Of a stretch of DNA of 42,468 bases, positions 16,088-42,468 are shown one piece after another. The notes under the pieces were generated by a model that saw only the letters and a program-made list of their open reading frames with translations, was not told the origin of the DNA and ran no database searches. This stretch comes from Desulfobacteraceae bacterium. GTDB taxonomy: Bacteria; Desulfobacterota; Desulfobacteria; Desulfobacterales; Desulfosarcinaceae. Position 1 is the stretch's first letter, and each line of letters opens with the position of its first letter. Where the stretch lies: the NCBI GenBank assembly GCA_037387725.1, contig JARRKU010000065.1, forward strand, positions 7,008 through 49,475, in the 5' to 3' direction. A program made the translations under genes and the position numbers.

Positions 16088-16227
16088 TGTGATAAGCCGA
16101 TAATGCTTTCTATCGATAGCGCTTTTTCCTTACAAGTTCACTTAATGATTTCAGCAATTGTTTTTTAGGCCGAAATCAATTGAAAACAACAGCATCATTG
16201 CCATTGCACTACTTCGAACCATACAAC

Positions 16228-16731: not shown

Positions 16732-16921
16732 TTATTCCTTTCTTCCTGCCCCCGAAAGCGGACTGTTCACAGAACCATAATTAATAGCGCACAAGGATGC
16801 AAAAGCCCCTCATCCGAGAATTGTAACAAGTTGATCATCTGCATTGATCGATCACCTATTTTTCGAAATATTTTTGAACAGTGTCGATTAGTGGTCCTCG
16901 CTGTCCTTCACCATCGGGTTG

Positions 16922-17320: not shown

Positions 17321-17419
17321 ATTTGAAAATTCCTTTATTTACGATTAAAAATATAAGGCGAACGAAAGGCGGAGACGCGCGTCTTCTTTGCGTGCTGTGT
17401 CTCAAGCGACATGTGCCAT

Positions 17420-17995: not shown

Positions 17996-18049
17996 GCTAT
18001 CTCCATTGTGATTAAAAGGACCTAATAACCGGCGAGTATGCGAATCCGA

Positions 18050-18853: not shown

Positions 18854-18912
18854 ATAAACTGGTATATCTTTTAGAAATGTAATTTTTACCGCAGAATTTG
18901 CAAATCGCCGCG

Positions 18913-19512
18913 TCAGCTTTTGCGGTAGATGCGAAAGGCCCGCATTACTTTTCGGACGTAGCGTTGGGTTTCCGGGTAGGGGGGAATATCGTTGTACTTT
19001 TCCACGGCCGTGGGGCCGGCATTGTAAGCGGCCAGTGCCAGGTCGACCTGCCCGCTGAAGCGTTCCAACATGGTCTTGAAATAGAAGGCGCCGCCCATGA
19101 TGTTCTCCCACGGGTCGAAAGGATCGTTGATATTAAGCTTATCCAGATTCTCCGGCATGATCTGCATCAGGCCCAGGGCCCCTTTTTTGGAGACGGCTCT
19201 GGGATTGAAGTAGGATTCCACATGGATGACGGCTTTAAGCAGGGAGGAGGAGAGGCCGTTGCGCGCGGCCGCCTCTGATATGACGTCGTCGTAGTTTTTG
19301 ATGTTGTAAAGGGCGCTGCGGTATTTGGAAGGTTCCGGCATATACACTTTGTACTTGCTGGAGGTGGGTGTGTTGGTGAAATGCAGCACTCCCTGGCTGT
19401 CCACGTATAGATAGATATCCGCTTGTGCGGCGGAAGTGACAAAAAGCGTCACCCCGATGACAATAAGCTTAAGCGTCCATTTGATCCGTTTGTTTGCAGA
19501 ATGCTTTTCCAT
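18913..19512 (-). CDS. Lytic transglycosylase (SLT domain), secreted
   Basis: Signal peptide. SLT motifs ES...GLMQIMP and AAYNAGP. Confidence 0.85.
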   Translation of the reverse strand: MEKHSANKRIKWTLKLIVIGVTLFVTSAAQADIYLYVDSQGVLHFTNTPTSSKYKVYMPEPSKYRSALYNIKNYDDVISEAAARNGLSSSLLKAVIHVESYFNPRAVSKKGALGLMQIMPENLDKLNINDPFDPWENIMGGAFYFKTMLERFSGQVDLALAAYNAGPTAVEKYNDIPPYPETQRYVRKVMRAFRIYRKS

Positions 19513-19671
19513 TTGAACTTATTGTTTTTAAATTGTATGAAATTTCAGCTTTTTAAGTTACAGCGTCCTCATGTGCCGGCGCTATGCGATTCAATATGAT
19601 AATCGGACGATTGCGCCAAACCTTAAGTTAATGTTTTCTATATATAATCGATAGCAAGAAGCGTACCTGTT

Positions 19672-20091
19672 TCACTGCTCTTCATCGGATGCTGTGATTT
19701 CAAACTCGGTGGTGATATCCGCCACACCGCGCACCGTGGCGGCCACCGAACAATATTTTTCCTGGGACAATTCTATGGCCTGGGCTAAAGCCTTTTCCGT
19801 CAAATTCCTGCCGCTGACCACAAATTTCAAGTGGATATGGTGATAGGCCCACGGCGGATCTTCGTTTCGTTCTCCGGTGGCGATCACTTCCAGAGACGTC
19901 AGGGGTTTTCGCTTTTTTTCCATGATGGAGAGGACATCGTAAGCCGTGCAGGCCGAAAGACCGATGAGCAGCACCTGCGATGGGCTCACCCCTTTGCCCG
20001 GGTCGCCTGCGGAGAGCACGATGGAGTGGTCTCTCGCGTCTGTTCCAACAAATTCTTTGTCGCTCACCCAATGTACGGTGGTGACAGGCAT
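19672..20091 (-). CDS. OsmC/Ohr-family peroxiredoxin-like protein
   Basis: ATG 20091 with RBS AGGAG. Two conserved Cys (LSACTAYD, KYCSVA) of the OsmC fold. Confidence 0.8.
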   Translation of the reverse strand: MPVTTVHWVSDKEFVGTDARDHSIVLSAGDPGKGVSPSQVLLIGLSACTAYDVLSIMEKKRKPLTSLEVIATGERNEDPPWAYHHIHLKFVVSGRNLTEKALAQAIELSQEKYCSVAATVRGVADITTEFEITASDEEQ

Positions 20092-21027: not shown

Positions 21028-22001
21028 TCGACCGCCAGCGTTTCCTTGCAGACCTGGGCCCATATGGCGAGGTGCTGTATGATGCCGCCCGGAATGCCTT
21101 GAATAGGCCTGATGGCAGGAGCGCCGCCCTGGAGCAGCTTCTGACGGAGCTGCCCGATGCCGATCCCTCCTTGTTCGCGCTCGACCGGGACAGCGTCACC
21201 ATCGGCCGAAAAGCGGATCTAAACCCGGACCAGGCCGGCCGGCTGGAAGGGGTGCTCAAAGGGCTCAAGCCATGGCGCAAAGGCCCGTTCACCCTTTTCG
21301 GCATCGACATCGACAGCGAGTGGAACTCGGCCCTCAAATGGCGACGGGTGGCGCCGAATATCGATCCGCTGCACAACCGCAAAGTGCTTGATGTGGGCTG
21401 CAGCAACGGGTATTATCTTTTTCGAATGGCGGCAGCGCAACCGCGCCTTTTGCTCGGCATCGAACCCTACAAGGCCTACTACCACCAGTTTCTGGCCCTG
21501 CAGCACTATCTCCACCTGCCCGGCACCTACTGCCTGCCGCTCCGATTGGAAGATCTGCCCGAGATGAACGCATGGTTCGACGCTGTTTTTTGCATGGGCA
21601 TTCTCTACCATCGGCGGTCCCCATTGGACACCTTGACCCGATTGAGGCAGATGCTGACCGACAACGGCCAACTCATTCTGGAGACCCTGATTCTTCCCGG
21701 CGAAGGGGAGACGGCGCTTTGCCCCCGGGACCGTTATGCCCGCATGCGAAACGTCTTTTTCATCCCTACTGTGAAATGTCTGCAAACCTGGTTGGAACGG
21801 TGCGGATTCGACCGCATCCGATGCGTGGACGTCACGCCCACCACCTTTGAAGAACAGCGCAAGACGGCATGGATCGATTCCAACTCGCTGGAGACGTATC
21901 TTGATCCCCGCGACGGCACCCGCACGGTGGAAGGCTATCCGGCCCCCGTTCGTGCCGTGGTGATTGCCTCACCTAATCAGACAAGGATTTCGCGGACGTG
22001 A
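21024..22001 (+). CDS. cmoB: tRNA U34 carboxymethyltransferase
   Basis: 325 aa from ATG 21024, with VLDVGCSNGYY and CmoB-specific N-terminal region. Confidence 0.9.
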   Translation: MIDRQRFLADLGPYGEVLYDAARNALNRPDGRSAALEQLLTELPDADPSLFALDRDSVTIGRKADLNPDQAGRLEGVLKGLKPWRKGPFTLFGIDIDSEWNSALKWRRVAPNIDPLHNRKVLDVGCSNGYYLFRMAAAQPRLLLGIEPYKAYYHQFLALQHYLHLPGTYCLPLRLEDLPEMNAWFDAVFCMGILYHRRSPLDTLTRLRQMLTDNGQLILETLILPGEGETALCPRDRYARMRNVFFIPTVKCLQTWLERCGFDRIRCVDVTPTTFEEQRKTAWIDSNSLETYLDPRDGTRTVEGYPAPVRAVVIASPNQTRISRT

Positions 22002-22906
22002 CCTTCTCATTCTGGATGTTGCTGCTGATCTTTCTAGGTGCGGGCATCTGGGGCCTTCGCCGGTTCCATAATCAGGCGCGAAGCGTTCAGCGGCTCAAAG
22101 TATCGCTGGAGAAGACCAACCGCCGCCTCCATGCTGCAGAGGAAGAGTACCAGAAAGCCTACGAAAAATGGGAGAACGATCAATCCAAATTGCGCAACTA
22201 CCTGCAGCTGATGGATACGCTATTCAACACCATCCCTAATCCCATTTATTTCAAGGACGAAGATGGCGTTTATCATGGCTGCAACCGGGTATTCTCCAAA
22301 CGGATACTAGGGTTGACCCGGGACCGCATCATCGGCCGTCGCCCTCAGGAGCTGTCCGAACAAATCCCTGCGGACCTGGCGGCGGTCTATCAACGGGAAG
22401 AGGCCAGGATGATTGAAAAAGCAGGCCCCCACGCATTCGAGGCGCCGGTCCAGCAGGCGGATGGACTTCGGCGTGACTATCTCTTCAGTCTGGCGCCGGT
22501 CACCGATGATGAGGGAAAATTCTACGGCAGTGTCGCCGTCCTCTACGACCTCACCGAAAAGAACCGCGCCACACGGGATCGGCTGGAAAAAGAAAAATTG
22601 GAGAGCGTTTTGGAAACAGCCGGGGGCGTCTGCCATGAATTGAATCAGCCCCTGCAAGCCGCTTCCGGCTATGCGGAGATCATGGCGGCCCATCTAACCG
22701 ATACCAAGGCTGCCGGATATGTTGAAAAACTCACCGACCAGCTCGACCGCATGCGCGATATCACCGACAAGCTTCAGGGCATTACCCGGGTGGAGGTGAC
22801 CGAATACGCCGGCGACACCAGGATTATCGATATTCACAAGTCATCGGAAAAGTCCAATGACGCCGAAAGAAGGACAAAGGCCAAAGATGTCGAGCAAAAA
22901 ACGTAA
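21998..22906 (+). CDS. Membrane-anchored PAS-domain protein with a HisKA-like dimerisation/phospho-acceptor region but no HATPase domain
   Basis: N-terminal TM, coiled coil, then a PAS fold (IYFKDEDGVYHGCNRVFSK). H-box CHELNQPLQAASGY. The C-terminal remainder is only about 70 aa, too short for an ATPase. GTG 21998 overlaps the cmoB stop (an alternative ATG is at 22016). Confidence 0.65.
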   Translation: MTFSFWMLLLIFLGAGIWGLRRFHNQARSVQRLKVSLEKTNRRLHAAEEEYQKAYEKWENDQSKLRNYLQLMDTLFNTIPNPIYFKDEDGVYHGCNRVFSKRILGLTRDRIIGRRPQELSEQIPADLAAVYQREEARMIEKAGPHAFEAPVQQADGLRRDYLFSLAPVTDDEGKFYGSVAVLYDLTEKNRATRDRLEKEKLESVLETAGGVCHELNQPLQAASGYAEIMAAHLTDTKAAGYVEKLTDQLDRMRDITDKLQGITRVEVTEYAGDTRIIDIHKSSEKSNDAERRTKAKDVEQKT

Positions 22907-28615: not shown

Positions 28616-29075
28616 TTTACTTCTCCTTTTTTACCCATTTCATTGTCTACTGCTGATTTAATTGCTTTACGATCTTGAAAGTTGTTTCAAATCCTTCAGC
28701 CGGTATTAATGCGTCCGGAAGACCGGCGCCGTCCAAACCGTTCGCCAAACGCGGAGCGCTGCTTAGTTGCGGCGTGTGCGGCTCGGGGAAGTCAGCTCGT
28801 GGGGCCACTCCCAGTGATCCATGTCACCGGGTCGAAGACCGCACGGCATCATCCCGTTGCCCCATGCCTGCGGCAACGGTATCCGCGCGCTGCAGGGCGT
28901 TTCGCTGGAACGTGTCGCCGGATACCGGCTTTGGCTTCTCTCCCATGGCTCGCCTTGGAGCGCATGGAAGAACCGGCCGCGGCCGATCATGCCGTCGACG
29001 TGTTCGTCGGGTGCCGGTCCTCCTTCGGCATTGTTTGGAGACCTTAACAGGGTCGTTGTGGGGGATTACCCCGGG

Positions 29076-29148
29076 TGTCTGGTACAGGATTCGAACCTGT
29101 TACACCTGCAGTAAAAGTGCAGTGCTCTACCCATTGAGCTAACCAAGC
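29076..29148 (-). tRNA. tRNA-Lys (anticodon UUU)
   Basis: Minus-strand sequence GCTTGGT-TA-GCTC-AATGGGTA-GAGC-A-CTGCA-CTTTTAC-TGCAG-GTGTA-ACAGG-TTCGAAT-CCTGT-ACCAGAC-A. Cloverleaf is intact except for a C2:A71 mismatch in the acceptor stem. 3' CCA is not encoded. Confidence 0.8.
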
Positions 29149-29438
29149 CCTGATATGTGCCGCCGTCAGAACCCATGTCCGGTACACACGCTGCTGACTG
29201 AAACGCTCATCGCTGCGATGAGTGGGTTGCAGAGCGGCGCGCGCCGCTGGAGCCGACAGATACCAGCTGATGTGAAAGAACAGGATGCGGCCTTCAGACT
29301 TTCGATGACGCCTCATCCATTGGCCTTCCCATACTTCAATGGGCGTGCCAAACTGGGAGACATGGAGGAAAAACAAACTAAAGGATTGTAAATATTTATT
29401 ATAATAACATCAACAGGCACATTCGAAGAAAGGGCAAG

Positions 29439-29497: not shown

Positions 29498-31132
29498 ATG
29501 AAAACAACCGCCATCGGGCTTCTGGGCCCCACCTTGGATACCGGCAAACGCGAATCCCGCTGGGAGCGATGGCGCCCCACCGTCGGGTTGTGCCAGCAGA
29601 AGGATCTGACCATCCACCGCTTCGACCTGCTCTACCAGACCCGTTTCAAGGGCCTGATGCAGCGGGTGTCGGAAGATATCCGCATGGTGTCGCCGGAGAC
29701 CGAAGTGGTGCCGCATCCCATCACCTTCCGCGATCCGTGGGACTTTGAAGAGGTCTTCGGCGTGCTGCACGACTTTGCCTCGGCCTACGCCTTCGACCCG
29801 GAAAATGAAAAATACCTGGTGCACATCTCCACCGGCAGCCATGTGGCGCAGATCTGCCTCTTTCTCCTCACCGAAGCGCGCTACTTTCCGGCCCGCCTGG
29901 TGCAGACCGGCCCGGTTAAAAAGGTTCGGGGTGCCGATCCGGCGGGCACCCATACCATCATCGATCTCGATCTTTCGCGTTACGACCAGCTGTCCGGACG
30001 GTTTCAAAATGAGCTGGACGACGATCTCTCTTTTTTGAAATCAGGCATCGCCACCCGCAACCCCGGCTTCAACCGTCTGATCGAAAAAATCGAGCGGGTG
30101 GCCATGCAGTCGGTGGACCCCATCCTGCTCACCGGCCCCACCGGCGCCGGCAAATCGCGACTGGCCCGGCGCGTGTATGATTTGAAAAAGGCGCGCCACC
30201 AGCTGGCAGGGGAATTCGTCGAGGTCAACTGCGCCACCTTGCGCGGGGATGCGGCCATGTCCGCCCTGTTCGGGCATAAGAAAGGGGCCTTCACCGGCGC
30301 ACTTCAGGACCGGCCGGGGTTGCTGCGGGCCGCCGACGGCGGCATGCTCTTTCTGGATGAGATCGGCGAGCTGGGGCTCGACGAGCAGTCCATGCTGCTG
30401 CGGGCCATCGAGGAGAAGACCTTTCTGCCCATGGGATCGGACCGGGAGGTCCGCAGCGACTTTCAATTGATCTGCGGCACCAACCACGAACTCGAGCGGG
30501 ATGTGCAAAAGGCAAGGTTCAGGGAGGACCTGCTGGCCCGAATCAACCTGTGGACCTTTCGCATGCCGGGGCTGCGGGACCGCAGCGAAGACATCGAGCC
30601 CAACCTCGATTACGAACTGGATCAGTTTGCCCGCAGGACCGGGCGGCGGGTGACCTTCAACAAAGAGGCCCGCCGTCGCTTTCTCGACTTTGCCGTCGCT
30701 CCTGCCGCCGCATGGCGGGCCAACTTCCGCGACCTCAACGGTGCGGTCACCCGCATGGCCACCCTGGCCCCGGGCGGGCGCATCACCCTTGCCGAGGTGG
30801 AAGAGGAAAAAGTCCGATTGCGCACCGACTGGAGCACTATCGCCCGTCCCATTGAGCGGCGGCGATCCTACCTGGCAGCTATCCTGACAGAAGAACAGCA
30901 GGCGGCCATCGATCCCTTCGACCGGGTCCAGCTGGAAGAGGTGCTGCGGATCTGCCGTGCATCGCGCAATCTGTCCGAAGCGGGGCGCCGCCTGTTTGCC
31001 GTATCGCGGCTGGCCAAGAAAAAGCCCAACGACGCCGACCGGTTGAGAAAGTACCTGGCCAGATTCGGCTTGAAGTGGGATGACATTACGGCGCCTGCCG
31101 TTGATCAGGCCACCCCTTTGAAACAGGCTTAG
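29498..31132 (+). CDS. rtcR: RtcR-like sigma54-dependent transcriptional activator (N-terminal CARF-type domain, AAA+ sigma54 module with GAFTGA, C-terminal HTH)
   Basis: N-terminus MKTTAIGLLGPTLDTGKRESRWERWRPTVGLCQ parallels the RtcR CARF domain. Walker A GPTGAGKS, GAFTGA loop, and C-terminal HTH (NLSEAGRRLF). Confidence 0.85.
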   Translation: MKTTAIGLLGPTLDTGKRESRWERWRPTVGLCQQKDLTIHRFDLLYQTRFKGLMQRVSEDIRMVSPETEVVPHPITFRDPWDFEEVFGVLHDFASAYAFDPENEKYLVHISTGSHVAQICLFLLTEARYFPARLVQTGPVKKVRGADPAGTHTIIDLDLSRYDQLSGRFQNELDDDLSFLKSGIATRNPGFNRLIEKIERVAMQSVDPILLTGPTGAGKSRLARRVYDLKKARHQLAGEFVEVNCATLRGDAAMSALFGHKKGAFTGALQDRPGLLRAADGGMLFLDEIGELGLDEQSMLLRAIEEKTFLPMGSDREVRSDFQLICGTNHELERDVQKARFREDLLARINLWTFRMPGLRDRSEDIEPNLDYELDQFARRTGRRVTFNKEARRRFLDFAVAPAAAWRANFRDLNGAVTRMATLAPGGRITLAEVEEEKVRLRTDWSTIARPIERRRSYLAAILTEEQQAAIDPFDRVQLEEVLRICRASRNLSEAGRRLFAVSRLAKKKPNDADRLRKYLARFGLKWDDITAPAVDQATPLKQA

Positions 31133-31528
31133 AGCAGCAGGAAAGCCCAATGCCGCTCCTGATGCAGCCATGGTTTTTGTCGTATTGACAAGCCGTATCG
31201 GCTATGATTTTCTAGATAAACAGCAGACGGTCCGCTCCTTCGATCTCCTTCGACACCGGCAGCCGTTGCTTTTCCCTGCTCACCGGAGCAAGTGCAGCCG
31301 TTCTCTGCAAAACGGGGGGGTCTCGCCTGCCGCAGCATCGGAACTGCTGCAATCCCATATCGAGAAAATCGACCCGGCAAGGGCTGTTACGGCCTTGCCG
31401 TAGCATCCATATTCATAACGCCGCGCGCGACCGGGAGCCCTTTGCTTTTCTGCGAACCGCTGCCGGCCGGCGGATCGGTAATGGTTTGCCTTTGGTGCGT
31501 CGGCATGGAGAAAAGGGAGGTATCGGAA

Positions 31529-33408
31529 ATGGCAGAGAACCAAGCGGCGATGGACAAGAGTCTGGACCCGGCCGTACGGCAGATGATCGCCAAGGCGCAG
31601 GACCAGGAGGTGAGCACGGTGTGGGACCGCTATGCGGCCATGACCCCCCAATGCAGTTTCGGCGACACGGGCTTGTGCTGTCGCCACTGCCTGCAGGGGC
31701 CCTGCCGCATCGATCCCTTTGGTGAAGGCCCCCAAACCGGCATCTGCGGCGCCAACGCCGACGTGATGGTGGCCAGGGGGCTCGACCGGGCCATTGCGGC
31801 CGGCACGGCGGCCCACTCGGGACATGCCCGCCATCTGGCCCACACCCTGAAAAAGATGGCCCAGGGAAAGACCGAAGCCTATACGATCAAAGATGGCGAC
31901 AAACTAAGGGCTGTGGCCGCACGGCTCAACATTGACGTGGAGGGCCGCCAGGAGAGCGAGATCGCCCTGGATGTGGCCGATGCGGCCCTGGCCGATTTCC
32001 ACGAAAAGGAGACCCCTGTGCTCTGGGCAGCCACAGTGGTCAACGAGGAACGGGCCAAGGTGCTCACCGACCTCAACCTGGTGCCCGTGGGCATCGACCA
32101 CGAAGTCTCCGAAATCATGCACCGCACCCTCTACGGCGTGGACGCGGATCCGGTCAACCTGCTCATCGGCGGGCTGCGATGCGGGGTGGCCGATCTGGCC
32201 GGTTGTTACATGGGCACCGACCTGGCCGATATCCTCTTCGGCGTTCCCCAGCCCACCATGACCGCCGCCAATCTGGGCACCCTGAAGGCCGATGCGGTCA
32301 ACATCGCCCTGCACGGCCACAATCCGGTGCTCTCCGATCTGCTGGTCACCTCCGCCGAAGCCAAGCAGGATGCGGCGCGCGCGGCCGGCGCCTCCGGCAT
32401 CAACCTGGTGGGGATCTGCTGCACGGGCAACGAGGTGATGATGCGCCACGGCATCCCGGCCTGCACCCATTCGGTGAGCCAGGAGATGGCCATCATGACC
32501 GGCGCCCTGGACGCCATGGTGGTGGACTACCAGCCGGCACCGAGATCATCACCACCATGGATATCGCCAAGATCAGCGGCGCCACCCATGTGGACTTCAG
32601 CGAAGAGCTGGCCGGTCCCAAGGCGTATGAGATCTTCGACAGGGCCATCGACAACTTCAAACGGCGGCGAAACAAAGCCGTGGACATACCGGATGTCAAG
32701 ACCCCGGTGATGGCCGGCTTCTCGGTAGAGGCCATCGTAGCGGCGCTCTCCAAACTGGACGCCAACGAGCCCCTCAAACCGGTGGTGGACCACCTCAAGG
32801 CGGGCAATATCCGCGGGGTCTGCCTCTTTGCCGGCTGCAACAACGTGAAGGTGGCCCAGGACAGGAACTTCATCCATATCGCCAGAAAACTGCTCAAAGA
32901 GAACGTGCTGGTGGTGGCCACCGGGTGCGGCGCCGGCGCATTGATGCGCCACGGCTTCATGGACCCGGCCAACACGGACGCGCTTTGCGGCGACGGCATC
33001 AAAGCGGTGCTCACCGCCATCGGCGAAGCCAACGGCTTGGGCGGACCGCTGCCGCCGGTGATCCACATGGGTTCCTGCGTGGACAATTCCCGGGCCGTGG
33101 CCCTCACCGTGGCCCTGGCCCAGTATGTGGGCGTCGACACCCAGCAACTGCCGGTGGTGGCTTCGGCCGCCGAAGCGGTTTCGGAAAAGGCGGTCTCCAT
33201 CGGCGCCTATGCCGTGGCGGCCGGACTGCCCACCCATGTGGGGGTGATGCTCCCGGTGCTGGGCAGCCAGCTGGTGGCCCAGGTGCTCACCGAAAAAGTC
33301 AAGGACCTGACCGGCGGCTACTTCATCGTGGACCTCGATCCGGACAGCGCCGCAGACAAGCTGCTGGCCGCCATTGACGAACGGCGGAAAGGGCTGGGAC
33401 TTGAATAA
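31529..33408 (+). pseudogene. cooS: Anaerobic carbon-monoxide dehydrogenase catalytic subunit, interrupted by a frameshift or internal deletion near 32534
   Basis: ATG 31529 with RBS AAGGGAGG. N-terminal Cys motifs (CSFGDTGLCCRHCLQGPCRI) and C-cluster region (INLVGICCTGNE). The reading frame switches between ...AMVVDYQ (frame 2) and GTEIITTMDIAK... (frame 1). The expected DYQC cysteine segment is absent. Confidence 0.75.
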
Positions 33409-33429
33409 AGCTTCGCTTTATGAACCGAA

Positions 33430-33550
33430 GAATATCGAACATGGAATTTCGAATGTCGAAGTGTGGCGTCGCTGCGCTCCATCAATTTATATGAATGATA
33501 AAATACCTTACTTCGAAATTCTGCGGTTCCTTGTTCGAAATTCGATATTC
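33430..33550. repeat. Palindromic repeat element A (about 120 bp) in the cooS-cooF spacer
   Basis: GAATATCGAACATGGAATTTCGAATGTCGAAGTGTGG ... CTTCGAAATTCTGCGGTTCCTTGTTCGAAATTCGATATTC. Its reverse complement matches element B at 35409-35543 (37/38 nt in the best block). Confidence 0.7.
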
Positions 33551-33566
33551 TTACGAGGAGTCGGAA

Positions 33567-34076
33567 ATGAAACAACCCAAAGAAATCTTCGTGCGGCTGG
33601 ACCGCTGCATGGGATGCCATAGCTGCGAGATGGCCTGCGCCGTGGCCCACTCCCAGAGCAAGCGCCTGTATGGCGCACTGGCGGAAACCACCCTGCCCAA
33701 GCCGAGGCTCTATGTGGAGGCCGTGACCGCCGATAACAAGGCGGTGCCCATCCTTTGCCGCCATTGCGAAGACGCCCCGTGCATGCACGCCTGTATCGCC
33801 GGCGCCATCAGCCGGAGCGATGCCGGCGTGGTGGCCACGGACAAGGACAAGTGCATCGGTTGCTGGACCTGCGTTATGGTCTGCCCCTACGGCGTCATCG
33901 GCCGGCACATGCAGGAACTCAAAGCCTACCGCTGCGACCGCTGCCCCGACCTGGAGACCCCGGCCTGCGTGAGCGCCTGCCCCTCAAAGGCGCTGCTCTA
34001 CCAGAGCGCCGACGATTACTCCCGCGGCGTCCGACAGACGGCAGCCGGTGAACTGCTGACAGGCGAAGGGGGGTAG
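33567..34076 (+). CDS. cooF: CooF-like 4Fe-4S ferredoxin-type iron-sulfur protein
   Basis: RBS GAGGAG. Four CxxCxxCxxxCP-like clusters (CMGCHSCEMAC, CRHCEDAPCMHAC, CIGCWTCVMVCP, CDRC...CVSACP). Confidence 0.85.
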   Translation: MKQPKEIFVRLDRCMGCHSCEMACAVAHSQSKRLYGALAETTLPKPRLYVEAVTADNKAVPILCRHCEDAPCMHACIAGAISRSDAGVVATDKDKCIGCWTCVMVCPYGVIGRHMQELKAYRCDRCPDLETPACVSACPSKALLYQSADDYSRGVRQTAAGELLTGEGG

Positions 34077-34081
34077 GCGCC

Positions 34082-35356
34082 ATGGCACAAAAACAATATC
34101 TGATCGTGGGCGGCAGCGCCGCCGGCATGGCCGCCGCCGAAACCATCGCCTGCCTGGACCCGGAAGGCAAGGTGCAGGTGCTGAGCGAGGAAGCCGACGC
34201 CCCTTACTTCCGCCCCCTGATCCCCTTTATCATCAGCCGGAAGAAAAACGACCGGCAGATCTTCCTGCAGGGGCAGGGGCCCTATGGTTCCGGAAAAGCC
34301 GAAATCCGGCTGCAGACCCGGGCCCGGCACATCGACCCCGATGCCCGGGCCGTGGTCGCCGACACCGGCGAATCCTTTGCCTACGACCGGCTGCTCATCG
34401 CAACGGGCAGCCGGCCGTACATTCCCGAAGAGATCGCAGGTACGGATCTGGAAGGGGTCTTTGCACTGAGAACCCTGGCCGATGCCCGGAAAGCCGAACA
34501 ACGGGCGGAGGTCACCCGGCATGCGGTGATGCTGGGCGGCGGCCTGCTCAACCTCAAGGCGGCCTTTGCTCTGCTGGAGCGCGGCATCGCCGTCACCCTG
34601 GTGGTTTTCTCGCCGGAAGTGCTCAGCCAGCTCATGGAGCCTGAAGACGCTCTGCTGATCCGCCGTGCCCTGGACCAGGCCGGGCTGCGCATCGTCACCG
34701 GCGCAGCCGCCACCTACATCACGGGCAATGGCAGCGGCGTCACCGGTGTGGTGCTGGACAACGGGGAGGAGATGGCGTGTGAGATGGTCTGTATCGGCAA
34801 GGGGGTGCGCCCCAATACCCGATGGATCGCAGAGAGCGGCATCGATATCCAAACGGGTGTGGTGGCGGACAAGTTCACCCGCACCACGTCTCCCGATGTT
34901 TATACCGCCGGCGACGCGGCCGTGACCTTCGATCCCATCACCGGAGAACCGATGGTCACCGGGCTATGGACCAATGCAGTGGAGATGGGACGCTGCGCCG
35001 GCGCCAACATGGCCGGCCGCCCCACTGCCTACGGCGGCACCTTCGGCATCCTCAACGCCACACAGGTGGCCCGCATGCCTTTTGTCGCCATGGGTGTGGT
35101 GCACACCAGCGGAACCGACTGCGAAGTGCATCGCCGGCAGACGACCAACGCCTATCGCAAACTGGTCTTCTCCCCCGAGGGCGACCGGTTGATCGGGGCC
35201 GTCCTGGTCGGCGACATCGGCAATGCCGGCCTCTACCGGGCGTTGATAAGGGATCGCATGCCGCTCGACGGCATCAAAGGGCAGGTGATCGACCACACCC
35301 TGCACTACGGCCATTTGCTGCTGGCCACAAGGACGATGACACCGATTAGTGCTTAA
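34082..35356 (+). CDS. FAD-dependent pyridine nucleotide-disulfide oxidoreductase (NADH-oxidase/CoA-disulfide-reductase-like)
   Basis: IVGGSAAGMAAA FAD dinucleotide-binding motif, second Rossmann fold (VMLGGGLLNLKAA) and C-terminal dimerisation domain. Co-directional with and adjacent to cooF. Confidence 0.85.
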   Translation: MAQKQYLIVGGSAAGMAAAETIACLDPEGKVQVLSEEADAPYFRPLIPFIISRKKNDRQIFLQGQGPYGSGKAEIRLQTRARHIDPDARAVVADTGESFAYDRLLIATGSRPYIPEEIAGTDLEGVFALRTLADARKAEQRAEVTRHAVMLGGGLLNLKAAFALLERGIAVTLVVFSPEVLSQLMEPEDALLIRRALDQAGLRIVTGAAATYITGNGSGVTGVVLDNGEEMACEMVCIGKGVRPNTRWIAESGIDIQTGVVADKFTRTTSPDVYTAGDAAVTFDPITGEPMVTGLWTNAVEMGRCAGANMAGRPTAYGGTFGILNATQVARMPFVAMGVVHTSGTDCEVHRRQTTNAYRKLVFSPEGDRLIGAVLVGDIGNAGLYRALIRDRMPLDGIKGQVIDHTLHYGHLLLATRTMTPISA

Positions 35357-35408
35357 GGGCCAATTACTCTGGTATCGGCTTTAAGAGGGACGAAGCGCCG
35401 GAATTTCG

Positions 35409-35543
35409 AATATCGAACAAGGAACCGCAGAATGTCGAAATTAAGCATTCTGTCATTTATATATATAAGAATGGCAGAGCGAAGCGATTCCACACTTCGA
35501 CATTCGAAATTCCTTGTTCGATATTCTGCGGTTCTATCCCGCC
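35409..35543. repeat. Palindromic repeat element B, inverted relative to element A, overlapping the recD2 stop
   Basis: GGAATTTCGAATATCGAACAAGGAACCGCAGAATGTCGAA ... CCACACTTCGACATTCGAAATTCCTTGTTCGATATTCTGCGGTTC. Confidence 0.7.
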
Positions 35544-37711
35544 AGGTCCGGGTTTAACCGCCACCCCAGCAAGGATCGGCGCTGGTTGGGCGCGTCGGCC
35601 TGGACCGCCACGCGCACGGCCTTGGCCGAGCCGACCAGGATCACCATCCGCCTGGCGCGGGTCAGGGCGGTATATAACAGATTCCGCTGCAGCATGATGT
35701 AGTGCTGGGTGACCATGGGCAGGATAATCACCGGGTACTCGGAGCCCTGGGACTTGTGCACGGAGATGGCGTAGGCCAGGGTCAGCTCGTCCAGGTCGGC
35801 CTCGTCGTAGGCGACCTCCCGGCCGTCGTAGCTCACCCAGAGGCGCGCCGCCTCCCGGTCCAGCCGCGCCACCGTGCCGATCTCGCCGTTGAAGACCTCC
35901 TTTTGATAGTTGTTGCGCAGGTGCATTACCTTGTCGCCCAGGCTGAAGGCGTCCCCCTTTTTCACCTGGGGGTTGAGGGCGGTCTGCAGCAGGCCGTTCA
36001 GGGCCATGGTGCCCAGATTGCCTTTGTGCATGGGCGTGAGCACCTGCACATCGGTGACGCCGTCCAATCCCAACTGACCGGGAATCTTCTCTTTGCAAAG
36101 GGAGAGGATGATGCCGGGTATGTTGTCGGGCCGCAGTTCTTCGATGAAGGTGAACTCGGCCAAAGTTGCATCTTTCGGCGCCGGCGCCATCTCTGGCAAT
36201 TCCCCCTGCCGGACGCGATGGGCATTGGCGATGATGGGACTCATGGCTGCCTGGCGGAAGACCTCGGTGAGGGCAAAAGCGGGAATCATCCCGGTCGCCA
36301 TCAGATCCCCCAGCACCGTCCCCGGCCCCACAGAGGGCAGCTGGAAGACATCGCCCACCAGGATCAGACGGGCGCCGTGGGGCAGGGCCCGCACCAGATG
36401 GCCCATGAGGGCCAGGTCCACCATGGAGGCCTCGTCCACCACCACCGCCTCGGTATCCAGGGGATTGTCCTGGTCATGCTCGAAATGGCCTTCGGCGAGA
36501 TTGAACCCCAGCAGCTTGTGCAGGGTGGCCGCCGGACGGTGAGCCACCTCGGAGATTCGCCGGGCGGCCCGGCCGGTGGGCGCGGCCAGCAGATAGGCGA
36601 TGCCCGACGCTTCGAACATGGCCGCAACGGCCCGTATGATGGTGGTCTTGCCGGTACCCGGACCGCCGGTGATGATCACCAGTCGCTGGTTCAGCACGCT
36701 CTGCAGCACGGTCAACTGGGTCCGGGAGAGCTGAATGGCCAAACGCCGCACAACGGCCTCGGCAATCTGCCCGGCGTCCACATCCGCATGCGCCACAGGA
36801 ATGGTCAGCATGGCCTGGAGCCGCTGGGCGATCCCGGTCTCGGCAGCATAAAGCGCCTGCCGGTAGACCGGCTCACCGGGCGCCTGACGGTCGATGACGA
36901 TCTCCCGGTCCTCGACGAGTTGATCCAGAGCATCCTGCACCGCATCGTAACTGAGATGGAAGGCCTGATCGCAACTCGCCTCCACCTCGGCCCTGCCAAC
37001 GAACAGATGCCCCTTTTCCCCGGCCTCGTAAAGCAGGTGACACACACAGGCCCTGGCCCGATCTGTTTCGTCGATGGGCCGATCGGATTTCCGTACGATG
37101 GCATCGGCGATATAGAACCCGATATGGGGGATGTCCGACGCCACTTTATAGGGATCGTTTTTCAGGATCTCCAGGGCGTCCGGGCCGTATGTCTTGTAGA
37201 TGCGCGCGCCATAGGCCGGTTTGACGTCATTATCCTGCAAAAACTGCATCAGGGCTCGCACGGCGTGATGCTCCTGCCAGGCCTGGGCTATTCGCCCGGC
37301 CCGGTCCCGGCCGATGCCTTTGACCTCGGTCAGCCGGTGCGGGGCGCTTTCAATGACCGACAAAGTCTCCTTCTTGAAGTGCGCAATCAGCCGCTCCGCC
37401 GTCTTGGGGCCCACCCCCTTGATCAGGCCGGAGAAGAGATAGTGCCGGATCTCTTCGATCCCGGAGGGCAGCAGCACTTCAAAGGCGGCCACCTTGAACT
37501 GCTGGCCGTAGCGGGGATGGGTCTCCCAGCGCCCTTTCAGGCGCAGGGTCTCGCCGGGCCGCGGCTCGGGAAAGTGGCCCAGCACCGTCACCAGGCCGCG
37601 CGCCTCGGCCACCCGCAGCTTGGCGATCATGAAATGATTCTTCTTACTGCGGAAGGTGATGCGCTCGATCTGGCCTTCGATGGTGTTGGGAGAGGATACA
37701 GCCATGGTCAT
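35534..37711 (-). CDS. recD2: RecD2-type ATP-dependent DNA helicase (SF1)
   Basis: 725 aa from ATG 37711. HhH region and Walker A GGPGTGKTT. Its start abuts and overlaps the gmhB stop. Confidence 0.9.
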   Translation of the reverse strand: MTMAVSSPNTIEGQIERITFRSKKNHFMIAKLRVAEARGLVTVLGHFPEPRPGETLRLKGRWETHPRYGQQFKVAAFEVLLPSGIEEIRHYLFSGLIKGVGPKTAERLIAHFKKETLSVIESAPHRLTEVKGIGRDRAGRIAQAWQEHHAVRALMQFLQDNDVKPAYGARIYKTYGPDALEILKNDPYKVASDIPHIGFYIADAIVRKSDRPIDETDRARACVCHLLYEAGEKGHLFVGRAEVEASCDQAFHLSYDAVQDALDQLVEDREIVIDRQAPGEPVYRQALYAAETGIAQRLQAMLTIPVAHADVDAGQIAEAVVRRLAIQLSRTQLTVLQSVLNQRLVIITGGPGTGKTTIIRAVAAMFEASGIAYLLAAPTGRAARRISEVAHRPAATLHKLLGFNLAEGHFEHDQDNPLDTEAVVVDEASMVDLALMGHLVRALPHGARLILVGDVFQLPSVGPGTVLGDLMATGMIPAFALTEVFRQAAMSPIIANAHRVRQGELPEMAPAPKDATLAEFTFIEELRPDNIPGIILSLCKEKIPGQLGLDGVTDVQVLTPMHKGNLGTMALNGLLQTALNPQVKKGDAFSLGDKVMHLRNNYQKEVFNGEIGTVARLDREAARLWVSYDGREVAYDEADLDELTLAYAISVHKSQGSEYPVIILPMVTQHYIMLQRNLLYTALTRARRMVILVGSAKAVRVAVQADAPNQRRSLLGWRLNPDLAG

Positions 37712-38289
37712 CCGCAACAGAGAGGTGGCAGCGGCGGTTCGGACAAAATCAAGTCGGCCGCAGCAGCGAGATCGTCCACCACCAGGGTGGGCGATACCTG
37801 CTTGGCGGCCAGCTCCTTCTCAGCCTGGCGCCCGCAACCGGTGCGCACCAGCATGGTGGCCCCGCAACCGGCATTCTGGCCGCAAAGCACATCCTTGATA
37901 TTGTCGCCGATCATCACCGTACATGGCAGATCAATGGCGTGGGCGGTCTTGGCCTGAAAGATCATGCCGGGCTCCGGCTTGCGGCAGTCGCACTGCTCAT
38001 CGGGGTGGTGGGGGCAGTAGTAAATATCGAAGATCTTCCCCCCGGCCGCTTCAACCGCCCGGCGCATGCGGTGAAACATATCTTCCAGCACCGACAGCGG
38101 CACCATGCCCCGCCCGATAATGGACTGATTGGTAATAACGATCAAATGATATCCGGCCCTGGTCAGGGCCGCCAAAGCCTCCAGGCTGCCGGGAAGAAAT
38201 TCAAATTCCTCCCAGCTCTTGATATAATCGGGTGAGTCCCGGTTGATCACCCCGTCCCGATCCAGAAAGATTACATTTTGCAGTATCAT
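37708..38289 (-). CDS. gmhB: D-glycero-beta-D-manno-heptose-1,7-bisphosphate 7-phosphatase (HAD-IIIA)
   Basis: FLDRDGVIN HAD motif I, CxC zinc site (CDCRKPEPGM), and the GDxxxD motif. RBS GGGAG. Confidence 0.85.
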   Translation of the reverse strand: MILQNVIFLDRDGVINRDSPDYIKSWEEFEFLPGSLEALAALTRAGYHLIVITNQSIIGRGMVPLSVLEDMFHRMRRAVEAAGGKIFDIYYCPHHPDEQCDCRKPEPGMIFQAKTAHAIDLPCTVMIGDNIKDVLCGQNAGCGATMLVRTGCGRQAEKELAAKQVSPTLVVDDLAAAADLILSEPPLPPLCCG

Positions 38290-38549
38290 GGCTCCCGCAT
38301 TTCCGATTACAGCTTAAACCGTCCGGCAAAAGGCAACAGCGGCAATGATCAAGATCAGCCCATACCGCATGAAGCCTAAATCATTAACCCATCGAATGCA
38401 ATTATTCATCACCGTGATGGGGACACGCATAAAATCAAATAAATCGCCACCCGACCCATATGACCATCCTGTTGTGGCCCAACACCATAACCGTTAGATA
38501 ACAAATAGTTACAAATTTAACAAGATTCATGGCATAATTCTCCAACATA

Positions 38550-38570
38550 CTTATGTGTCAGACACATAAG
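38550..38570. promoter_or_regulatory. Perfect 10-1-10 palindrome (candidate operator)
   Basis: CTTATGTGTC-A-GACACATAAG in the AT-rich region between gmhB and the first cassette ORF. Confidence 0.4.
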
Positions 38571-38797
38571 TGCGTAATTTAAACATATTGTTGCACTCAA
38601 ACGGATTATCAAAAGGCATAGCAGGGCTATGGAGTGGGACTTTAGATCGATTGAACCACTCGATTATTCAGAGAATATATGATGTAGGCGTGAATCAACC
38701 TTACCGATCTTGGCCTTATAGCGATAAAAAGCAAAATTTTTCCATAATATTGTTGTATATTCCGCAAGAATATCACACAATCATAACAAATACAGAC

Positions 38798-38876
38798 AAT
38801 TAACAAAAAATTGCACTCAATTGCGATTCAGCCGTCTTATCAAAAAGCAGCTGCGGCAGAATCTATAATGTTAAGT
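38798..38876 (+). repeat. attC/attI-like recombination site preceding the first cassette ORF
   Basis: Inverse-core-like AATTAAC (38798-38804), then 65 bp, then core GTTAAGT (38870-38876) 8 nt before ATG 38885. The reverse complement of the core (ACTTAAC) equals the inverse core of the next site. Confidence 0.4.
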
Positions 38877-38884
38877 TTCAAAGT

Positions 38885-39565
38885 ATGAATATACCTTTGA
38901 CATATTATTTTGAATACTGGTTTAAGAATTCTTTGCTGGCTTTGTTAACCGGCTTTTTAATTACTTTTCTAATTCCGCCTTTGTTAGCGGCATTGCCATT
39001 GTTTGGCCTAATTCTGTTTTTAATGTATCAGATGATTATATATCGACATTTTTGGGGAAAAAGGAGAGGAGATTTTGAGTTCTCTTCTAAGGAAAATCTT
39101 ATAAAGAGGAAGATTAATTCCTTTATAAAACAGCAGCTTGGAATAGGGGAATTGATACGTTATAAATTAGACCACCTAAACAGCATTATTACCTATGGAT
39201 GGGATATGTATCATAAGCTTGCGCGACGGTCAGAAAATCAAGATGAAATTTTTCATTATTTCTTAAATTTAATTGGAGCTGATCTTTCTCGAAAGGAAGG
39301 TGACTTTAAAAAGGAACGGGAATATCTAATAAACGCAGTATTAGCGTCCCCAGATGATACAGTATCTAATTTTCGACTTGCAGTTACATTTGAGCAAGAG
39401 GGACGATCTGACGAGTCAGTAAATTATTATAGAAAGGCTTTAGAGGCTTCCTCAATTGATACGCCTGAGCTCAAAGAGTTTATAATGGGTCAAATTACCC
39501 GTGTAATTGAAAAAGGCCCAGCCAAAAGCCCGCCAGTCCCGGGGTTGAGGTTTATGTCATGGTAA
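38885..39565 (+). CDS. Cassette ORF 1: 2-TM protein with TPR-like C-terminal region
   Basis: 226 aa, AT-rich. A hydrophobic hairpin (LLALLTGFLITFLIPPLLAALPLFGLILFLM) followed by a soluble helical domain. Confidence 0.5.
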   Translation: MNIPLTYYFEYWFKNSLLALLTGFLITFLIPPLLAALPLFGLILFLMYQMIIYRHFWGKRRGDFEFSSKENLIKRKINSFIKQQLGIGELIRYKLDHLNSIITYGWDMYHKLARRSENQDEIFHYFLNLIGADLSRKEGDFKKEREYLINAVLASPDDTVSNFRLAVTFEQEGRSDESVNYYRKALEASSIDTPELKEFIMGQITRVIEKGPAKSPPVPGLRFMSW

Positions 39566-39578
39566 TGGGAAAAAGGAA

Positions 39579-39650
39579 ACTTAACCATGCCTTTCACTCG
39601 GATGGCAATTCCGCTGCGCTACATTGCCACCGGTGAAGGCGGCGTTATCT
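39579..39650 (+). repeat. attC-like site 1
   Basis: ACTTAAC...imperfect palindrome with bulges (GCCTTTCACTCGGATGGCAAT / ATTGCCACCGGTGAAGGCGG)...GTTATCT. Starts 14 nt after the ORF1 stop. Next ORF starts at 39669. Confidence 0.5.
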
Positions 39651-39668
39651 TCGTAAGGTGGAGGAACT

Positions 39669-39977
39669 TTGGGAAAGATTCTATTTAAAGTATCTGGAGC
39701 ATATGATCTATCCGAGTATCGATGGTGGCACGATTCTGAAGATGGGAAAAGTTATCTTTACCTCGAATTTAAAGGTGGAGATGGCGAATGCGCTATCAAA
39801 TTTACAAATCCTTATTCAATTGATTCAACTTTTGAGCTTTTCGAGGATTTTCATGAACTCGTTGTGTATGATTCGAAGGAAGATCAGTGGGAAAAACATA
39901 CGGTTAAGGCTGAATATTTCGTTGAATCATTTCATGAGTTTTGGGCAGAGGCATTTGATATAATATCGGGCAGATAA
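39669..39977 (+). CDS. Cassette ORF 2: small acidic cytosolic protein (102 aa)
   Basis: TTG start with strong SD AGGTGGAGGA 5 nt upstream. No family recognised. Confidence 0.45.
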   Translation: MGKILFKVSGAYDLSEYRWWHDSEDGKSYLYLEFKGGDGECAIKFTNPYSIDSTFELFEDFHELVVYDSKEDQWEKHTVKAEYFVESFHEFWAEAFDIISGR

Positions 39978-40097
39978 CCTTGCTGTCCAGAGGGACAGCA
40001 AAGGCCGGGCCACTATGAAAGATATTGCTTTATCAAATTTAAAACCGTTTACAAAGGTCAGTGGAAGCCCTTGCTGCCCCTGACCGCAGCGTTAGGG
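39972..40097 (+). repeat. attC-like site 2
   Basis: AGATAAC (contains the ORF2 TAA), CTTGCTGTCC-AGAG-GGACAGCAAG hairpin ... CTTGCTGCCCCTGACCGCAGC GTTAGGG (40091-40097). Next ATG at 40105. Confidence 0.5.
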
Positions 40098-40104
40098 GGG
40101 GCTC

Positions 40105-40554
40105 ATGGCAGATGATTTGTTTGATAAGCAACACGATGAACCACTTGTAATAGCGCTAAAAAAGGATGATCCTGAGTTGTTAAAGTGTACGAAGAAGGCT
40201 CAAGAGACACTTCAGGTTTTTCTTGATCTTTATGAACAGTATCATAAGGATATTTCGATATACTTCGCCATTAAGGTACCAATAGAGACCGATGATGATC
40301 CAGTTCATCTTTGGTATTCATTTAATGGTATAGAAAAAGGTTTGCTGGTAGGAGAGCATTTTCAAATTCCACAGGGGTTTGAACACTTAAAGAATATTAA
40401 GGTTAAGCCTGAAATCATCGAAGACTGGATGATAAATGACCATGAGATATTGTATGGCGGTTTTTCATTAAGGTATCAACGATCATTGCTCCCTGAGGGA
40501 CGAAGACCAAAATATGATGAGTATATGGGGGTTAGGGAATATAAAGATATTTAG
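40105..40554 (+). CDS. Cassette ORF 3: hypothetical protein (149 aa)
   Basis: RBS AGGGGGGG. Hydrophilic protein, no confident family assignment. Confidence 0.5.
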   Translation: MADDLFDKQHDEPLVIALKKDDPELLKCTKKAQETLQVFLDLYEQYHKDISIYFAIKVPIETDDDPVHLWYSFNGIEKGLLVGEHFQIPQGFEHLKNIKVKPEIIEDWMINDHEILYGGFSLRYQRSLLPEGRRPKYDEYMGVREYKDI

Positions 40555-40555
40555 C

Positions 40556-40613
40556 CCCTAACAATCGGCTGTTGGCGAACTCGCTTTGCTCGCCGCAAAG
40601 CCGCACGTTCGGC
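40556..40613 (+). repeat. attC-like site 3
   Basis: CCCTAAC 2 nt after the TAG, AATCGGCTG ... GCTTTGC-TCGCC-GCAAAGC hairpin ... CCGCAC GTTCGGC. Next ATG at 40631. Confidence 0.5.
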
Positions 40614-40630
40614 GTCTAAAGGGACAACAT

Positions 40631-41281
40631 ATGGCTATGCAACTCTCTCATGCTTTACTGGAAATGCATGACATTCGGATTTTTCGAGTCGAAGATTCAG
40701 AGGAATTTGATTCTGACAACTTCATAAAATGGGACGTGACTCCCATTGAAACAGATGTCCTTTTGGAACAGGATGGTTTATTTATTTTACGCGCATTTCA
40801 GATTAAGGGACCCAACGAAAAAATTGACTGCTTCATTGATCTGACAATGCCCGAAAGAATAGCTGATTATGCTTATTTCATAGGTTCTGGCAATGTGGAA
40901 CGTAAGTATCTTCACGAATGTGATGGTAATGTTATCTGTGCTATACCGATTGATGGTCACGGCGTATATGATCTATTTTATTCAAAAATTAATCCTGACC
41001 TCGGGCTGTCAGTCCTCCGACGAGGGCTTGAGCTTGCTACTCGGAAAGTTTTCATAGCAGAGGATCTTGGATATATTTTACGCGATGAAGGCCGTATTGA
41101 AGAGGCGATAGAAGCGTTTAGTATATCAGCCTCTGAAGAACCATCGTCATACTTCATATATCACGAACTTGCAGAACTTTACGATCAGCTGGGTCAGACC
41201 GAGCTTTCAAAACAGTACCGCGACAAGTGCCCAAAACAGGATACTCAAATGAAAAGAAAACCGTGGTGGAAGCTATGGTAA
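40631..41281 (+). CDS. Cassette ORF 4: hypothetical protein with TPR-like C-terminus (216 aa)
   Basis: ATG 40631 preceded by AAAGGGA. No known family. Confidence 0.5.
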   Translation: MAMQLSHALLEMHDIRIFRVEDSEEFDSDNFIKWDVTPIETDVLLEQDGLFILRAFQIKGPNEKIDCFIDLTMPERIADYAYFIGSGNVERKYLHECDGNVICAIPIDGHGVYDLFYSKINPDLGLSVLRRGLELATRKVFIAEDLGYILRDEGRIEEAIEAFSISASEEPSSYFIYHELAELYDQLGQTELSKQYRDKCPKQDTQMKRKPWWKLW

Positions 41282-41283
41282 AT

Positions 41284-41344
41284 GCCGAACCTCTCGCTGG
41301 TGAGGACGGCGAGGACCATGCCGCCTCACAGCTTGGCGTTGTGC
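41284..41344 (+). repeat. attC-like site 4
   Basis: GCCGAAC 3 nt after the TAA (the exact reverse complement of site 3's GTTCGGC core). GCTGGTGAGG ... CCTCACAGC with one bulged base. Ends GTTGTGC. Next ATG at 41361. Confidence 0.5.
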
Positions 41345-41360
41345 GCCTCGATATTGAGCT

Positions 41361-41747
41361 ATGAACGAGAATAATCTAAAATACAGCCCCCTCCCGCATT
41401 ACACGTCAAAAGAGCAAATTGAACGTGTTCTTGAAGGAGATGATGTTGAGGAATTGATTAGGTTGCCGCTGGCGATAGGCTCCTCATATCATGATTGGAA
41501 ATATGCGCAAGACACTTGCATAAAGCTATCAGAGTATGAGGATGCTAGAATAAGCTCTAATGCGTGCTTGGGATTAGCATATGTCGCAAGAAATCATTTG
41601 AAGCTTGAAAAGCATTTGATAAAGCCAGTCCTGATTAAAGAATTAAGAAAAAATCACAAATATAATTGGCGTGTAATTGATTCAATTGAGGATATAAATA
41701 GGTTCATGAAATGGAATATTGCTATTAAACACTTTCAAAATAAATGA
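41361..41747 (+). CDS. Cassette ORF 5: hypothetical protein (128 aa)
   Basis: AT-rich ORF, no known family. Confidence 0.5.
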   Translation: MNENNLKYSPLPHYTSKEQIERVLEGDDVEELIRLPLAIGSSYHDWKYAQDTCIKLSEYEDARISSNACLGLAYVARNHLKLEKHLIKPVLIKELRKNHKYNWRVIDSIEDINRFMKWNIAIKHFQNK

Positions 41748-41754
41748 GAAGATC

Positions 41755-41824
41755 GCACAACATTTGTGTTCAGCGGATCGCGAGGACCATGCGCCCGCTG
41801 AAAAAACGGTATTGTGGGTTTGAT
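41755..41824 (+). repeat. attC-like site 5
   Basis: GCACAAC (the reverse complement of site 4's GTTGTGC core). TTCAGCGG ... CCGCTGAA 8-bp arms. Ends ATTGTGG/GTTTGAT. Shares the 13-mer GCGAGGACCATGC with site 4. Confidence 0.5.
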
Positions 41825-41834
41825 CGAAATTGGT

Positions 41835-42275
41835 ATGAGTCTATCTGAATTACAAAAGAAGGGACTCGACATAAAAAAATCGAAAAATGTAGCGAATCTT
41901 CCTAATCCGGAGCATTATCAAATCGACTCTTTAGGAATCGATTTTGAAATATACGATAGTAAAATAATTCGTATTTGGTTTTTTACCGAAAAAAATAAAT
42001 CATTTCAGCTTTGGCTACCAAATGAGTCCTCAGAAAGGCTGCTATATAAAATTTCGGCTTCTGACATTATTCGAAACTTTGGGGTAGTAAGAAAATATGT
42101 TGATGAGAATCCTCCAAAAGATAAAGATGAAGCGCAGTGGGCAAAATACAAACCATTTGGAATAAAGATAAACACGATTTATTATCCGAAATTGCCCTTT
42201 CATTTTGGATTAAATGATGAGGATAATGTTTCTTATCTAACCGTATCTAAATGTAAAACAGAAACTGCGCAATAG
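41835..42275 (+). CDS. Cassette ORF 6: hypothetical protein (about 147 aa; alternative GTG start at 41814)
   Basis: AT-rich ORF, no known family. Confidence 0.45.
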   Translation: MSLSELQKKGLDIKKSKNVANLPNPEHYQIDSLGIDFEIYDSKIIRIWFFTEKNKSFQLWLPNESSERLLYKISASDIIRNFGVVRKYVDENPPKDKDEAQWAKYKPFGIKINTIYYPKLPFHFGLNDEDNVSYLTVSKCKTETAQ

Positions 42276-42281
42276 GGTTTC

Positions 42282-42384
42282 ACATAACATCTATATGGCC
42301 TTCCGTTGTCAAGGAATAAACCACCCCACGGGATCGGAAGAAGTGAAAAGTCCAAAATCCGGTAAAACTCTGAAGAGTTGACAA
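42282..42384 (+). repeat. attC-like site 6
   Basis: ACATAAC 7 nt after the TAG. Inverted repeats CTTCCG/CGGAAG and GTTGTCAA/TTGACAAC. GTTGACA core at 42378-42384. Confidence 0.4.
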
Positions 42385-42468
42385 CGCGTTTGGTAACTCC
42401 GACTTTGGCTTTCAACAGCAGGCATCAGACAGCTTTCCAGCGTCTGCACCAAACATCTATCGAAATTT

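Follow-up and report, generated by a model that had tools for sequence, protein, structure and literature searches.

Does the cooS gene at this locus still encode the catalytic subunit of a working Ni-CODH, and if it does not, does the break belong to the sequenced cells or to their assembly? The window (the whole stretch of DNA that was analysed, 42,468 nucleotides) was compared with 80 related cooS loci drawn from species-representative genomes, with solved CODH structures and with protein and RNA family models. The best explanation, which we consider probable, is that, in a Desulfobacteraceae-like organism, cooS of a CooS-CooF-FNOR CO-oxidation cluster has very recently lost 37 nt, by a deletion that is real in the sequenced DNA.

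Translation of the plus strand follows the N-terminal cooS frame from the ATG at 31529, preceded by AGGGAGG, through 335 native codons to the CAG at 32531-32533 (…GALDAMVVDYQ). The same frame then continues in aberrant codons (PAPRSSPPW…SRPR) to a stop at 32708-32710, and the product predicted as written has 393 aa, 335 native and 58 out-of-frame residues. The homologous C-terminal reading starts in another frame at GGC 32536 (GTEIITTMDIAKISGATHVDF…) and reaches its stop at 33406-33408. The assembled junction is CAGCCGGC, that is CAG/CCGGC, with the codons GAC-TAC-CAG-CC-GGC-ACC. The four segments are as follows.

31529..32533, plus strand: cooS N-terminal part, with the D- and B-cluster Cys, His264 and Cys298 (translation; TIGR01702 and PF03063 matches)
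32534..32535, plus strand: deletion junction CC, with 37 nt absent just before it (DNA alignment with six relatives)
32534..32710, plus strand: out-of-frame tail of 58 codons and premature stop (translation)
32536..33408, plus strand: cooS C-terminal part, 290 codons and stop, beginning GTEIITTMDI… (translation; TIGR01702 match)

A tblastn search with the intact CooS of the related locus L001, the nearest relative, as query gave two HSPs, residues 1-336 in frame 2 (92.6% identity) and residues 349-639 in frame 1 (93.8% identity). The preliminary description had placed the first frame from ATG 31529 to about 32533 and the second up to 33408 with only 2 nt between them, and the translations and tblastn results agree with it exactly, the 2 nt being the CC at 32534-32535.

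The identity of the encoded protein was examined with profiles and structures. On the TIGR01702 model (anaerobic CODH catalytic subunit, cut-off 478 bits) the N part matched positions 2-333 with 364 bits and the C part positions 345-621 with 322 bits; each half by itself is below the cut-off, and both together span the model except for positions 334-344, the only ones left unmatched. Positions 1-282 of the Pfam Prismane family (PF03063) were matched by the N part. When the two parts were spliced, the best match among solved structures was CODH-II of Carboxydothermus hydrogenoformans, at 984 bits from end to end (979-985 bits over the CODH-II entries), against 641 bits for CODH-IV (6elq). By similarity, the protein is a CODH-II-like (clade F) CooS and not one of CODH-IV type.

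All six D- and B-cluster cysteines are encoded (Cys42, 50, 51, 54, 59 and 73 of the window, equal to CODH-II Cys39, 47, 48, 51, 56 and 70), as is the equivalent of CODH-II His93. Two C-cluster ligands lie in the N part, His264 (CODH-II His261) and Cys298 (CODH-II Cys295). The C part encodes the equivalents of CODH-II Cys446, Cys476, Cys526 and Lys563, out of frame with the start codon. The complete C-cluster set (His261, Cys295, Cys333, Cys446, Cys476, Cys526) is thus not encoded in one polypeptide, the Cys333 codon being deleted.

The size of the gap was determined from a MAFFT DNA alignment with six relatives, in which window cooS shows a single clean gap of exactly 37 nt, as the preliminary description had estimated approximately. 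The absent stretch corresponds to TGCATCATGCCCGCGGTGGTCAACGCCGCCGAGTGCG in L001, and the 37 bases that an intact version of the window would carry are approximately TGCATCATGCC…GAGTGCG. In the relatives an Ala/Thr codon stands before GGC, and the CC retained in the window is its final two bases. Intact homologues had been described as having about 13 residues here, starting DYQC. This spacing was borne out, as in 78 of the 80 related loci DYQ and G(T/S) are separated by exactly 13 residues (consensus CIMPxVxxVAECx). Aligned to C. hydrogenoformans CODH-II, the absent residues are 333-345, among them Cys333 and another Cys that is invariant. The C-cluster is held by five cysteines, of which Cys333 is one, and the neighbouring Gln332 belongs to its second shell (PMC6005268); the Cys of DYQC, taken earlier for a C-cluster ligand, aligns with Cys333 and is one.

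Both exceptions to the 13-residue spacing are lesions of other kinds. In L034 (PFIF01000155.1, ~4960-4975) a 1-nt insertion (GGGGCGCCTGG) shifts the cooS frame ~30 nt upstream of DYQC, and in L075 (CP070697.1, 4890-4989) a scaffold gap of 100 N lies within cooS. A further related contig, L082, finishes at 2720-2958 with the 3' end of cooS duplicated in inverted orientation, a typical assembly artefact.

Loss of 13 codons after DYQ (CODH-II 333-345, with Cys333 and the second invariant Cys) and the accompanying shift of frame would lead translation from ATG 31529 to yield 335 native and 58 nonsense residues, ending at the stop at 32710, and the C-terminal 290 codons, with the other three C-cluster Cys ligands and Lys563, would not be translated in register. 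Such a truncated product would have the B- and D-cluster sites, yet just two of the six ligands of the C-cluster, and because of this no Ni,Fe C-cluster would be expected to form and no CO to be oxidised by this locus. We infer, in line with the preliminary description, that CODH activity from this gene is lost and that cooS as written cannot encode an active Ni-CODH, its Cys333 codon being absent and the remaining Cys ligands out of frame. The premature stop, followed by ~700 nt of untranslated mRNA, would probably also lower expression of cooF and FNOR. As it stands in the assembly, the locus is a predicted cooS pseudogene or a mis-assembled cooS, and not a functional member of the family.

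The surroundings of cooS were annotated with Pfam and NCBIfam models and compared with the related loci. The genes that define the cluster type are listed here.

29498..31132, plus strand: rtcR, a sigma-54 activator directly upstream of cooS (NCBIfam RtcR equivalog, 805 bits, cut-off 650)
33567..34076, plus strand: cooF-like 4Fe-4S ferredoxin, 169 aa, intact (Pfam Fer4_11 and related families)
34082..35356, plus strand: FAD/NAD(P) oxidoreductase (FNOR), 424 aa, intact (Pfam Pyr_redox_2 over the full length)

CooF is equal in length to that of L001 and L081, and FNOR, a flavoprotein of the pyridine-nucleotide-disulphide family, has 421-422 aa in the relatives; the earlier reading of both partners as intact is upheld by their full length against these relatives. 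Since cooF and FNOR adjoin cooS on the same strand, the locus belongs to the CooS-CooF-FNOR clusters. The order cooS-cooF-FNOR also occurs in L001, L002 and L081, and cooS is intact in L001 and L081. Together with rtcR upstream and recD2 downstream on the opposite strand, the genes form the order rtcR-cooS-cooF-FNOR-recD2, which L081 shares; L001 shares it too, apart from a 3.3-kb insertion after rtcR. That insertion in the rtcR/cooS interval (L001 581-3975, ~3.3 kb) is absent from the window and L081 and includes an ORF for a 539-aa membrane protein on the opposite strand. No CooA, RcoM or CooC gene was found in the window's CooS-CooF-FNOR cluster, and no second cooS paralogue within the 42-kb window. 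A search of 31133-31528, upstream of cooS, for a sigma-54 promoter with at most one mismatch gave no match; control of cooS by RtcR was rejected on this ground, and the linkage of rtcR and cooS appears to be local synteny only.

One element of the preliminary description did not hold, namely its assignment of the locus to a CODH-IV-type stress cluster. The CODH-IV operon of C. hydrogenoformans (CHY0735-8) comprises rubrerythrin, CooS-IV, CooF and an NAD/FAD oxidoreductase, and its role in oxidative stress was proposed by Wu et al. 2005 from the rubrerythrin gene (PMC1287953). Both loci have CooF and an NAD/FAD oxidoreductase gene next to cooS. The window differs in that its CooS is far closer to CODH-II and in that no rubrerythrin gene lies between rtcR and recD2, where there are three genes; for these two reasons it is not of CODH-IV type. 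CooS-CooF-FNOR cluster, a context reviewed by Inoue et al. (PMC6344411), is the neutral name for it.

Two repeat elements were located around cooF and FNOR.

33422..33552, no strand assigned: palindromic MITE/REP-like element of ~130 nt in the cooS-cooF spacer, absent there in L001, L002 and L081
35400..35534, no strand assigned: second MITE/REP-like copy, inverted relative to the first, with a copy at the same position in L001 and L081

The element consists of TTCGAA(T/A)(A/T)TTC-type repeats, and its two inverted copies bracket cooF-FNOR; no further copies were found in the window. Copies in the relatives lie at 7812-7944 in L001 and 6700-6926 in L081. The cooS-cooF spacer measures 158 nt in the window versus 63 nt in L001 and 96 nt in L081, lengthened by the lineage-specific element.

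On the other side of rtcR, a conserved sigma-54-type promoter (TTGGCACGCCCATTGA, 29336-29350, minus strand) diverges from the gene. The divergent transcript region covers 28980-29350 of the minus strand in the window and 150-690 in L081, and the ~170-nt leader after the promoter is near-identical in L081, where the surrounding DNA is ~80% identical. It contains a tRNA-like gene at 29074-29148 (tRNA-Lys UUU by ARAGORN; 62.9 bits on the Rfam tRNA model), followed by conserved hairpins; the module in L081 has an Asn (GUU) anticodon loop. In a consensus fold of the two sequences a long 5'/3' stem closes the whole transcript around the tRNA-like module. The predicted transcript resembles the YrlA/Y-RNA-like RNAs of RNA-repair operons under RtcR control. 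It has no rtcB, rtcA or rsr gene beside it, and the next gene on the same strand encodes an SPFH/Band-7 protein.

GC content is 62-63% over the rtcR-cooS-cooF-FNOR-recD2 block (30000-38000), 41% in 38000-42468 (TPR and DUF2314 proteins), 41-47% in 16000-20000 (including a ClpS-domain protein) and 50-59% in the remaining window; these sharp changes may mark islands of foreign origin.

The age of the lesion was assessed from the state of cooS on either side of the gap. With the method of Nei-Gojobori, dN/dS between the window and L001 was 0.096 for the N half and 0.073 for the C half of cooS, below the values for the intact pair L001 and L002 (0.158 and 0.113) and below those of the neighbouring cooF (0.126) and FNOR (0.150) in the same comparison of window and L001. 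Among 76 intact homologues, 283 columns are conserved at 97% or more. The window departs from these at six (C, I, M, P, A, C), all inside the gap, and at none of the 277 outside it, where intact controls differ at 1-3. The out-of-frame C half runs for 873 nt without a stop or indel, and the 1,875 nt of cooS carry no additional stop or indel and no substitution at a conserved site. On these substitution patterns, purifying selection kept its full hold on cooS essentially up to the present. As there is no decay outside the gap, the lesion either arose very recently or is an artefact. At 92-93% identity in protein and ~85-87% in DNA, the best relatives belong to different species.

Genuine inactivation and assembly error had both been left open in the preliminary description, and with reason, as the two are not separable by sequence alone. 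We regard it as probable that the deletion was present in the cells and not merely in the assembly. The competing view, which we judge unlikely, is that the true gene is an intact cooS of ~638 aa, from which assembly, consensus polishing or library preparation dropped the 37 bases. The absence of secondary decay is equally expected of an artefact, and both cooS halves are as pristine as in an intact gene, with 0/277 conserved columns outside the gap differing. That cooS lesions occur in draft bins, such as the L034 frameshift and the L075 scaffold gap, also speaks for such a loss. Set against it, a 37-nt loss is unlike the homopolymer type of read error, microhomology between the deletion ends amounts to 1 nt at most, and the site is flanked by no direct repeat of a length that could collapse a de Bruijn or overlap graph. 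About 40 other ORFs of the 42-kb window cover their Pfam models fully and no second frameshift was seen, which argues against a generally error-prone assembly.

A possible route to an artefact is a polymerase jump over the hairpin of an inverted repeat that brackets the site.

32514-32524 (CCATGGTGGTG) and 32550-32560 (CACCACCATGG), no strand assigned: 11-nt perfect inverted repeat around the junction, also present in relatives

The intact L001 sequence folds more stably than its shuffled versions (z = -2.6), but the signal is missing in L002 and L081 (z about 0). The repeat comes about as a by-product of coding for AMVV and ITTM; it is not established as the cause of the deletion.

Several specific origins of the lesion were considered and rejected or set aside. 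Hairpin-driven deletion was set aside on the grounds that the deletion lies inside the loop and not at the stem base, and that a fold more stable than shuffled sequence is seen in only one of three relatives. Repeat-mediated deletion or assembly collapse was rejected: between the AGTGC copies that relatives have at both ends of the missing segment, slippage would take out 33 nt in frame, and the CAGTGCGCC expected from it is not observed, while slippage between GGTGGT copies would remove 30 nt versus the 37 found. Generally poor assembly was likewise rejected, the Pfam scans of about 40 ORFs having revealed no second split gene. One short protein in the window, a PAS-HisKA protein of 302 aa at 21998-22906 without HATPase_c, has a natural end, is followed by no ATPase remnant in any frame and appears to be a naturally short sensor, not a second broken gene.

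Conspecific sequence was sought with the FNOR, RtcR and CooF proteins and the 393-aa N fragment, none of which had an exact match; 48-nt left-flank and degenerate junction patterns had no match in metagenome contigs, nor the junction in viral contigs. As no conspecific assembly was found, the deletion is seen in one sequence only. If the assembly is a metagenome bin, its consensus may stand for part of the population only.

There is a small chance that the deletion is real and represents a loss-of-function allele, segregating or adaptive, in which CO oxidation has just been switched off, CooF-FNOR is kept and the MITE-like insertion uncouples both for another electron-transfer role. Even less probable is an old pseudogene, left by a lineage that abandoned CO oxidation and retained cooF and FNOR for another role. 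The intact state of these two genes and the lineage-specific MITE-like element between cooS and cooF would be in keeping with such a history. An old lesion would, however, have let some further lesions accumulate in the 1,875 nt of cooS, which has none, and the sole sigma-70-like match in the spacer element points away from cooF.

Least credible of all, and rejected, is that the split gene is still functional by recoding, whether by a programmed -1 frameshift or by a ribosomal hop at the junction, which would yield the junction peptide …VVDYQAGTEIITT…: the C-terminal half is still open and conserved, but a recent deletion accounts for this, and recoding cannot rescue cooS because sequence itself is missing, in place of an in-frame stop, and the junction (C-TAC-CAG-CCG-GCA) has no X-XXY-YYZ slippery heptamer, so that any product would lack 12-13 residues of invariant length including Cys333, the ligand codon being gone in any case. 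For Clostridium autoethanogenum, read-through of its split acsA has been reported (2016, as cited in the review PMC6344411); this gene resembles window cooS in being a CODH gene annotated as two ORFs. The acsA gene has one in-frame stop, its ORFs share a frame and nothing is missing, whereas in window cooS 37 nt are gone and the frame changes. With differing frames and 13 residues absent, the window gene is not of the stop-codon read-through type.

The reading we prefer, a very recent and real 37-nt deletion, can be set beside known systems. Relative to C. hydrogenoformans CODH-II (PDB 1su6, 2yiv, 5fle), window CooS has the same D-, B- and C-cluster ligand positions and no alignment indel besides the gap; it differs in the loss of residues 333-345 with a frameshift after Gln332, and its gene context of cooS, cooF and FNOR is not that of CODH-II. 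The same three-gene content is found in the CooS-CooF-FNOR clusters of Geobacter sulfurreducens, Clostridium ljungdahlii and C. autoethanogenum (Geelhoed 2016, Whitham 2015 and Liew 2016, as summarised in the review PMC6344411). The enzymes studied from such clusters belong to clade C or E, whereas window CooS is of clade F (CODH-II-like) and its catalytic gene is broken.

Family, cluster type and kind of lesion are thus all already known, and the break is an ordinary event or error and no new biological system. Its relevance is confined to the physiology of one organism and raises no new question on CODH mechanism or recoding. In annotation, the window locus should not be credited with CO oxidation, and its cooS calls for a pseudogene label or a flag for verification against reads. 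The closest precedent is cooS-III (CHY1221) of C. hydrogenoformans Z-2901, which is frameshifted by a deletion that was confirmed on sequence traces and that its authors judged to be recent and possibly laboratory-acquired (PMC1287953). In both cases a deletion frameshifts the gene for a CODH catalytic subunit in an otherwise complete operon, although cooS-III is a different, ACS-associated paralogue in a different organism, with an intact allele known from another strain. If the deletion in the window is real, it would be a further case, like that of C. hydrogenoformans Z-2901, of the very recent loss of a CODH paralogue.
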